Part shown: piece after piece, positions 4,164 through 5,779 of the stretch | How the letters are laid out: every line of letters begins with the position of its first letter | How positions within the stretch are numbered: position 1 is the stretch's first letter | Notes under the pieces: model-generated | Database searches by the model: none | What the model was told of the DNA's origin: nothing | Seen by the model: the letters and a program-made list of their open reading frames with translations, nothing else | Origin: Escherichia coli | GTDB taxonomy: Bacteria > Pseudomonadota > Gammaproteobacteria > Enterobacterales > Enterobacteriaceae | DNA length: 28,560 bases | Reading direction: 5' to 3' (one strand) | Assembly: GCF_003334815.1 (NCBI RefSeq) | Contig: NZ_QOWO01000045.1 | Position numbers and translations under genes: made by a program

Positions 4164-5019
4164 CAGGCTGCGGCATTTTGTCCGCGCCGGGCTTCGCTCA
4201 CTGTTCAGGCCGGAGCCACAGACCGCCGTTGAATGGGCGGATGCCAATTACTATCTCCCGAAAGAATCCGCATACCAGGAAGGGCGCTGGGAAACACTGC
4301 CCTTTCAGCGGGCCATCATGAATGCGATGGGCAGCGACTACATCCGTGAGGTGAATGTGGTGAAGTCTGCCCGTGTCGGTTATTCCAAAATGCTGTTGGG
4401 TGTTTATGCCTACTTCATAGAGCATAAGCAGCGCAACACCCTTATCTGGTTGCCGACGGATGGTGATGCCGAGAACTTTATGAAAACCCACGTTGAGCCG
4501 ACTATTCGTGATATTCCGTCGCTGCTGGCGCTGGCCCCGTGGTATGGCAAAAAGCACCGGGATAACACGCTCACCATGAAGCGTTTCACTAATGGGCGTG
4601 GCTTCTGGTGCCTGGGCGGTAAAGCGGCAAAAAACTACCGTGAAAAGTCGGTGGATGTGGCGGGTTATGATGAACTTGCTGCTTTTGATGATGATATTGA
4701 ACAGGAAGGCTCTCCGACGTTCCTGGGTGACAAGCGTATTGAAGGCTCGGTCTGGCCAAAGTCCATCCGTGGCTCCACGCCCAAAGTGAGAGGCACCTGT
4801 CAGATTGAGCGTGCAGCCAGTGAATCCCCGCATTTTATGCGTTTTCATGTTGCCTGCCCGCACTGCGGGGAGGAGCAGTACCTTAAATTTGGCGATAAAG
4901 AGACGCCGTTTGGCCTCAAATGGACGCCAGATGATCCCTCCAGCGTGTTTTATCTCTGCGAACATAATGCCTGCGTCATCCGCCAGCAGGAGCTGGACTT
5001 CACTGATGCCCGTTATTGA
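4138..5019 (+). pseudogene. A: Terminase large subunit A, N-terminal about 290 codons only, truncated by an internal prophage deletion
   Basis: ORF overlaps the Nu1 end as in lambda and translates to the gpA N-terminus (MNISNSQVNRLRHFVRAGL...), but stops at 5017-5019 after ...ELDFTDARY, where the sequence switches to tail-fibre J. Full-length gpA is about 641 aa. Confidence 0.8.
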
Positions 5020-5779
5020 GAACACCCCTGACGGCATGCAGAGTCAGGTGCTGCTGGCGGCGGACAGGATTGCGATGGTTAATCCTGCGAATGGCAACAC
5101 AAAACCGATGTTTGTTGGTCAGGGCGATCAGATATTCATGAACGACGTGTTCCTGAAACGCCTGACGGCCCCCACCATTACCAGCGGTGGAAATCCACCG
5201 GCATTTTCCCTGACTCCGGACGGAAAGCTGACCGCTAAAAATGCGGATATCAGTGGCAGTGTGAATGCGAACGCCGGGACGCTCAACAATGTCACGGTAA
5301 ATGAAAACTGTACGATTAAGGGCATGCTGGAGGCGACTCAGGTCAGAGGTGACTTCGTTAAAGCTGTATCCAAATCATTTCCGAAACAGGCTGGTACGTG
5401 GGGTAACACGGAAACACCAAACGGGACGGTTACAGTCACCATAAGCGATGATCATAACTTTGACCGTCAAATCATTATTCCGCCCATTATCTTTAACGGA
5501 ATAGCGTATAGCGATCCGGGAAGTGGTAATAACCCGGGAGGTACAAGATACACGGGTTATGGTTTTGAAGTTCGCAAAAACGGTGTATTAATCGCATCCA
5601 GAGAAACTAAAGGGGCTATTCCCGGTAGCTACAGTTCGGTTATTGATATGCCGAGTGGCAGGGGAAGCGTCACTCTGGAGTTTAAGGTTTTCCATAAAGG
5701 CAATCAGTGGGCAGGTAATATCACCGACTGTACGGTGATTGTGACCAAAAAAGCCGCTTCCGGCATCAGTATTCGTTGA
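5006..5779 (+). pseudogene. J: Host-specificity tail-tip protein J, C-terminal fragment of about 257 codons
   Basis: From 5006 the frame encodes ...[40 protein letters not shown]..., which resembles the J C-terminal region. The track ORF 4805-5779 only reaches upstream by out-of-frame read-through of A. Confidence 0.65.

Follow-up and report, generated by a model that had tools for sequence, protein, structure and literature searches.

A phage 434-class receptor-binding domain in a J gene remnant of a defective lambdoid prophage in Escherichia coli

The stretch of Escherichia coli DNA analysed here (28,560 nucleotides, contig NZ_QOWO01000045.1, hereafter the window) carries a remnant of the lambdoid tail-tip gene J. 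We consider it very probable that this is a non-functional J remnant in a defective prophage, that it holds a receptor-binding domain of the phage 434 class, and that the phage which donated it bound OmpC. An earlier note, made from the letters of the sequence, had proposed that the C-terminus of the fragment departs from that of lambda J and that the ancestral phage consequently used a receptor other than LamB. Below we describe the fragment, the prophage in which it lies, the class of its receptor-binding domain and the receptor that this class points to, followed by the deletion end-points found in related J remnants and the activity that the fragment may still have.

Extent and domain structure of the J remnant

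The remnant is an open reading frame of 257 codons (5006–5779, plus strand, with the stop codon ending at 5779), and the peptide quoted in the earlier note lies in frame 2, within a longer open frame at 4805–5779. Positions 5014–5779 encode the C-terminal 254 residues of a tail-tip protein like lambda J, i.e., the last quarter of the gene, corresponding to residues 912–1165 of phi458 J and 884–1132 of lambda J. The first three codons of the frame, from the ATG at 5006, are gene-A sequence read in the J frame, and J-derived sequence starts at 5014. PGAP annotates the fragment as a pseudogene ('missing N-terminus'). The NCBIfam model lambda_TipJ (NF049904) is matched only over profile positions 910–1163 of 1163, with 359.8 bits against a cut-off of 1950; a full-length J, with ~1,130–1,165 aa, an N-terminal hub, FNIII domains and a score above this cut-off, is not present. 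The gene order at the locus is J, terminator, lom, stf and tfa.

BLASTP against lambda J (NC_001416) aligned residues 3–255 of the fragment with J 884–1131 (E = 6e-82, 53% identity). Residues 3–116 are identical to lambda J 884–997 at 86 of 114 positions (75%), including a conserved core at lambda 924–983 in which 56 of 60 residues agree (40/40 over 924–963 and 16/20 over 964–983). Over residues 117–256 only 52 of 139 positions are identical (37%, or 35% with gap columns counted), and indels relative to lambda occur at 1011/1012 (+2), 1043/1044 (+6) and 1078/1079 (+1), together with a rearranged gap pattern around 1099–1114. At the DNA level, similarity to lambda is 89.6% over 5105–5335 and is then absent until lom. 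The proposal that the last roughly 150 residues do not resemble the lambda J C-terminus, while the preceding stretch does, was therefore borne out in both parts, the last 140 residues being 35–37% identical with four indels; high identity to lambda J does not extend over the whole C-terminus.

The upstream portion (5015–5335, plus strand) is the conserved central-fibre (beta-prism) part of J with its near-invariant linker, recognised by the Pfam family Phage_Tail_Tip (PF09327) and by invariant columns in an alignment of 18 sequences. PF09327 is matched by residues 3–91 over model positions 41–138 of 139, so the domain is cut at model position 41. The downstream portion (5366–5773, plus strand) is the receptor-binding domain, a complete Ig_GpJ_C domain (PF12421; residues 120–255, model positions 1–134 of 135, E = 2.6e-26) with a 434-type cassette, and Pfam describes this family as 'Tip attachment protein J, C-terminal receptor binding domain'. 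The fragment thus retains a trimeric beta-prism stalk and a C-terminal Ig-like receptor-binding domain.

An AlphaFold2 monomer model was built from the 18-sequence alignment. Its pLDDT was ~76–92 by block in the binding domain and 37–57 over residues 1–115 (the trimeric prism), where the model is unreliable, so that only the binding domain was used. The best Foldseek matches were 8XCJ (lambda gpJ713–LamB), 8XCK (closed lambda fibre), 9WCA (A8 gpJ713, closed) and 9WCB (A8 with OmpC), so the fold is that of the lambda receptor-binding domain, with different loops. Natural J homologues are rich in indels at positions 1012, 1048, 1077 and 1107, of which 1012 and 1107 were critical for the laboratory switch of lambda to OmpF (PMC6646904). 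The four indels between the fragment and lambda lie at or near these same four positions, between strands in the AlphaFold2 model.

Lambda gpJ (8XCJ and 8XCK; LamB-binding) resembles the fragment in domain architecture, in a near-identical stalk linker and in homology along its whole length (E = 1e-74 to 1.5e-75), but differs in a binding domain of 35–37% identity with four indels at the loop positions that decide receptor use in lambda. High identity to J 990–1132, including the loops at 1012, 1048, 1077 and 1107, which would mark a LamB-binding domain of the lambda type, was not found, and indels were present in all four loop regions.

A mosaic prophage shaped by two deletions

E. coli strain 52F4, isolated from a calf, has a chromosome (NZ_CM147848) that matches the window at 100% identity; in it, a defective lambdoid prophage lies between ybhC and ybhB-bioA, the lambda attachment site. 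A tyrosine integrase and an excisionase adjoin ybhC, the late genes are DLP12-like (essD, rrrD, rzpD, bor and nohD), and Q, the lysis genes and nohD, all upstream of the J remnant, are intact according to PGAP. The annotation of the prophage shows no head or tail genes beyond the pieces of A', 'J, lom', stf and tfa. Its lysis and terminase region is like that of DLP12 and its J-lom-stf region like that of phi458; because the prophage is such a mosaic, the donor of the J-lom-stf module need not be the phage that first integrated at the site. The 'ancestral phage' is here the phage that donated this module.

The terminase large subunit gene is represented by its first 293 codons only (A', 4138–5016, plus strand), whose translation matches lambda gpA. 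Up to the junction, A' has 97.4% DNA identity to lambda 1288–1589; its frame ends at the TGA at 5017–5019, and PGAP records it as a pseudogene ('missing C-terminus'). When the sequence was aligned in register to phi458 J and to an A gene that is intact, the A'-'J deletion junction fell at 5014–5016 (plus strand), at a 3-bp microhomology, TAT, which is embedded in a longer imperfect match (GATGCCCGTTAT versus GGTGCCGGTAT). The deletion joined codon 293 of the terminase gene A to codon 912 of J and took out every head gene, every other tail gene and ~910 codons from the start of J. This junction was found in 1 of 5,426 complete genomes, that of strain 52F4 only. The ATG at 5006 precedes the stop codon of the A' frame by 9 nt.

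Downstream of J, a hairpin scan detected a terminator-like hairpin (5798–5821, plus strand), at the position where a terminator is annotated in the phage 434 record. It is followed by lom' (~116 codons, with a signal peptide), fused in frame to stf (5849–9406, plus strand; a Lom pseudogene and a tail protein in PGAP) in a single open reading frame of 1,185 codons. A second deletion, with its junction at 6195–6197 and the microhomology TGG, made this fusion, and tfa (9406–9990) comes directly after it.

Several other features of the prophage were recorded. An OmpC-family porin gene (NCBIfam 'porin OmpC', 517.9 bits) is located between Q and the lysis genes (locus L002 9513–10595, ~0.4 kb upstream of window position 1). 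Phage PA-2, whose receptor is OmpC, encodes the Lc porin between Q and the lysis genes, a pattern into which a prophage that replaces the porin and has a tail tip of the OmpC type would fit. The right end of the prophage, adjoining ybhB, is a Septu-like PtuB/PtuA defence pair (window 11942–14406, minus strand) composed of an HNH protein of 296 aa and an AAA ATPase of 525 aa, with PADLOC matches at 8e-112 for PDC-M01B, 1.5e-202 for PDC-M01A and 6e-185 for PtuA. Between tfa and this pair lies an open reading frame of 419 codons (window 10119–11378, minus strand), hypothetical in RefSeq, for which no PADLOC or NCBIfam match was found.

A similar and independent A'-'J remnant is present in APEC O78, at the DLP12 site by appY (locus L004 7184–8119). 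Its A' and 'J pieces are longer, with the junction near the J sequence ITESHLGKE, and it carries an A8-type cassette between the same conserved flanks (243 of 248 residues identical to PDB 9WCA). Structures of this APEC O78 type are widespread in poultry isolates.

The receptor-binding domain belongs to the phage 434 class

Judged by its sequence, the binding domain is a member of the phage 434 class and not of the lambda class. Comparison with the J protein of phage 434 (OL657226, CPT_434_21) gave 132 identical residues out of 140 (94.3%), with no indels. In a common alignment, identity of the binding domain was 94% to 434, 99% to phi458, 35% to lambda and 42% to the A8 type. A tblastn search with the last 140 residues against 50,697 phage records returned 243 matches, 74 at 90% or above and 169 below 60%, with lambda at 35.9%; because no identity falls between these two groups, the domain represents a discrete cassette class. 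The group at 90% or above comprises 434, phi458, cdtI, Ayreon, ev099, mEp332 and many Stx1a-, Stx2a- and Stx2c-converting phages.

At the DNA level, the cassette extends over ~5336–5740, and DNA similarity to the APEC O78 remnant is absent over 5323–5740. Its upstream border is the near-invariant linker, and on its downstream side it is bordered by the conserved end of J (~13 codons, starting at 5741), the terminator and lom. The stalk of 434 is lambda-like (MEDTEEG...), whereas the window and phi458 share another stalk (IENTPDG...); the occurrence of one cassette on different upstream J backbones points to modular exchange. A natural J allele in alignment A1, P0058, is a hybrid inside the binding domain: its first half belongs to a class like that of an O157 prophage and its last ~45 residues (MPSGGGNVTLEFKIFQKGNQGAGNITDC...) to the 434 type, which indicates that exchange occurs within the cassette as well.

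Comparison with the nearest described proteins places the fragment more precisely. Phage 434 J shares with it the Ig_GpJ_C fold family as well as the downstream terminator and lom; it differs in that the window holds only the last 254 codons and has a stalk of the other backbone, which is 81% identical. The J protein of phi458 (OP434518) agrees with the fragment at 252 of 254 residues, and the J-lom DNA at 98.6% over 1,188 nt, but in phi458, as in cdtI, Ayreon and ev099, J is full-length (1,165 aa) and the phages are complete. By sequence as by fold, the best PDB matches are solved chains of lambda gpJ and A8 gpJ, and the top sequence match overall is the A8 gpJ chimera (9WCA; 9WCB with OmpC), a natural J variant of the same fold that binds OmpC and not LamB and that has served for delivery directed at OmpC (PMC11338833). 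For A8 we used the sequence in the PDB alignment, with the APEC O78 remnant, which matches the A8 chain at the 243 of 248 residues given above, as its representative; the fragment is identical to this remnant at 60 of 143 positions (42%) and is thus not of the A8 type, which forms a separate cassette class.

The cassette DNA (5340–5779) was present in 2,090 of 5,426 complete E. coli genomes (~39%), mostly at 90% identity or above, and is therefore an ordinary variant. The J receptor-binding class of the remnant is one that is already known and very common.

The donor phage most likely used OmpC

Work by Hantke from 1978 is said to be the primary source for the receptor of phage 434. This receptor is OmpC, and lambda with the 434 J gene in place of its own binds OmpC instead of LamB (PMC3509688; PMC11101478). 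Because the binding domain of the remnant is 94% identical to that of 434, whose J transfers OmpC specificity to lambda, OmpC is most likely the receptor that was used by the donor phage of the J-lom-stf module. The suggestion of a receptor other than LamB, made in the earlier note, is thereby supported by homology, through the alignment with an OmpC phage that it had called for (94.3% over 140 aa, with no indels). In the donor phage, three copies of the domain at the tail tip would have bound OmpC, as in 434, and this binding would have led to tail opening and DNA ejection, by analogy with what has been described structurally for lambda and LamB. The gpJ chimeras A8 and 1A2 both use OmpC while accepting different OmpC variants (PMC11338833), so fine specificity does not follow from class membership.

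From the window to 434, the domain carries eight substitutions, namely S123A, Q127K, A128V, N138D, S168D, S210A, R218G and W234R, and several of these are predicted by the model to lie in receptor-facing loops. S210 (5636–5638) is unique to the window, with alanine in every aligned relative that keeps the segment. W234 (5708–5710), in the predicted bottom loop, is shared only with remnants in which codon 600 of J is joined to codon 912 (loci L006 and L007); working phages have arginine or glycine at this position.

Two other explanations of the divergent domain were weighed. One is that a lambda-type, LamB-binding domain drifted after the gene was inactivated, as the status of the gene as a pseudogene remnant might suggest. 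Compared with the inducible phage phi458, the remnant shows 7 nucleotide differences in 765, of which five are synonymous and two are not; these two, A210S and R234W, could be drift, with only A210S unique to the window. The reading frame of the remnant is open and its differences from phi458 are mostly synonymous. Moreover, the same sequence occurs at 98% in Ayreon and cdtI, so that it is 98–99% identical in functional, plaque-forming or inducible phages, and an identity to lambda of 35% with four indels is far past what drift would produce in a 99%-conserved allele. Since the domain has 99% identity to its counterpart in phi458, a working phage, and 94% to that in 434, its divergence from lambda is not decay; together with the bimodal distribution of identities, empty between 60% and 90%, these comparisons rule out drift from a lambda-type domain, to which we attach practically no probability. 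The other explanation accepts a domain of the 434 class but lets this particular allele bind a receptor different from OmpC, e.g., OmpF or still LamB. The eight substitutions relative to 434, some of them in predicted loops, would leave room for it, as would the finding that lambda J needs no more than four point mutations to use OmpF (PMC6646904). A literature search on the receptors of phi458, Ayreon, mEp332, ev099 and the PhiR phages returned genome papers or unrelated ones and no direct receptor data for these closest phages, while a receptor-prediction preprint from 2026 deals with Drexlerviridae GpJ and leaves lambda J out of its GpJ C-terminal alignment. Against such a change of receptor, the domain is 94% identical, with no indels, to one that has a documented OmpC specificity transferable with J, and use of LamB would moreover need convergence from 35% identity. 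We regard a non-OmpC receptor as unlikely, and the 434-class domain of the donor phage is read here as OmpC-binding.

Deletion end-points in other J remnants

The closest relatives of the fragment are remnants with an internal deletion joining codon 600 of J to codon 912, which differ from it by 5 nucleotides in 765. They share the derived W234, and the right end of their junction is the same as that of the A'-'J junction to within one nucleotide. The J600-J912 junction is present in 17–19 complete genomes, and in ML35 it is found at the e14/icd site. The same TAT microhomology fits the substrates of sequential as well as of independent deletions as the origin of the shared right end.

Mapping onto J of the best 150 of 367 cluster representatives, together with the earlier matches, gave 95 distinct junctions, of which 84 have their right ends in J 740–1130. 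Twelve of these 84 fall within codons 905–916 (2.6 expected; Poisson 1.7e-5) and nine within codons 987–990 (0.9 expected; 3e-7), both intervals having been chosen post hoc. These sites lie on either side of the stalk domain, which is found upstream of the receptor-binding cassette. Left partners at codons 905–912 are terminase A, J600, J517, L, capsid E, portal, a PerC-like protein, a CDGSH zinc-finger protein and a GntR-type regulator; unrelated host genes are among them. At least nine identified left partners end within ~21 nt of the A'-'J junction of the window. Junctions near J codon 912 are located at window position 5014 and at L006 1725, L007 3508, L008 ~14136, L009 ~6199, L010 ~6343 and L011 ~6433. 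All five junctions that were read at the DNA level use one of two tandem GGTATTG copies within GCG GGT ATT GGT GCC GGT ATT GAG, with 2–5 bp of microhomology where the left partner's own sequence was at hand.

Chi sites were rejected as a cause of the breakpoints, as the three in the window are all beyond 15 kb. Sequencing frameshifts that would mimic fusions were likewise rejected: at codons 987–990, the one left flank checked by hand is not out-of-frame J, and at codons 905–912, the nine left partners are identifiable genes, several of them in complete genomes or large contigs. The protein database held only long open frames, with one representative per 50% cluster, and under-samples out-of-frame junctions. 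Given this sampling and the post hoc intervals, the clustering is a lead and not a result, and we put forward only as a doubtful possibility that the left end of the fragment sits in a recurrent breakpoint of J. If it did, J would contain a hot spot of breakage or of short-homology recombination, or else selection in decaying prophages would keep a complete module of stalk and binding domain, which might, for instance, act as a donor cassette or be expressed. Only these clustered deletion end-points could lead to anything new.

What the remnant may still do

The first ~910 residues of J include the hub and the FNIII domains (PMC11101478). As the corresponding residues are missing here, the product cannot be part of a tail, and we infer that the fragment in its present state cannot build one. 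Its only plausible activity would be a passive one, in which incoming lambdoid phages acquire an OmpC-type cassette from it by homologous recombination. Lambda takes up DNA from defective prophages at ~2e-6 across ~700 bp of 88–96% identity (PMC3945230), and the remnant keeps flanks shared with lambda, with 231 bp of 89.6% identity to the left and 404 bp of 85.6% identity (in stf) to the right; the measured recombination and the retained homology together make this role plausible. With lambda as recipient, the right-hand crossover would fall in stf and would produce a lom-stf deletion.

The remnant might instead be expressed by re-initiation, giving a soluble trimer of stalk and binding domain that mixes with or poisons related J trimers. 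Ribosomes terminating on A' could re-initiate at the ATG at 5006, given its position 9 nt before the A' stop, and late transcription could reach the remnant, given that Q, the lysis genes and nohD are intact; in addition, the part of lambda J from residue 713 onwards is soluble as a fragment and able to bind receptor (PMC11101478). This ATG, however, has no usable Shine-Dalgarno sequence, GGAG lying 13 nt upstream, the product has no signal peptide, PGAP calls the gene a pseudogene, and the truncation interrupts the Phage_Tail_Tip domain at model position 41 of 139. In-frame fusions are numerous among other remnants that share this left end, but such a bias is expected from a search of a protein database, and the exact junction of the window occurs in one genome only, which gives no sign of selection. 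We therefore consider an expressed product very unlikely, and the remnant is best regarded as a non-functional piece of a defective prophage that may serve as a passive cassette donor.

Exchangeable receptor-binding classes among natural J alleles were already known, and the 434 class had already been tied to OmpC. The last ~140 codons of J show directly to which receptor class a prophage remnant belongs. OmpC-type cassettes differ from one cryptic prophage to another, the one described here keeping the 434 type and the remnant in APEC O78, at the DLP12 site, the A8 type, and these remnants retain the conserved flanks that would let infecting lambdoid phages take up the cassette.
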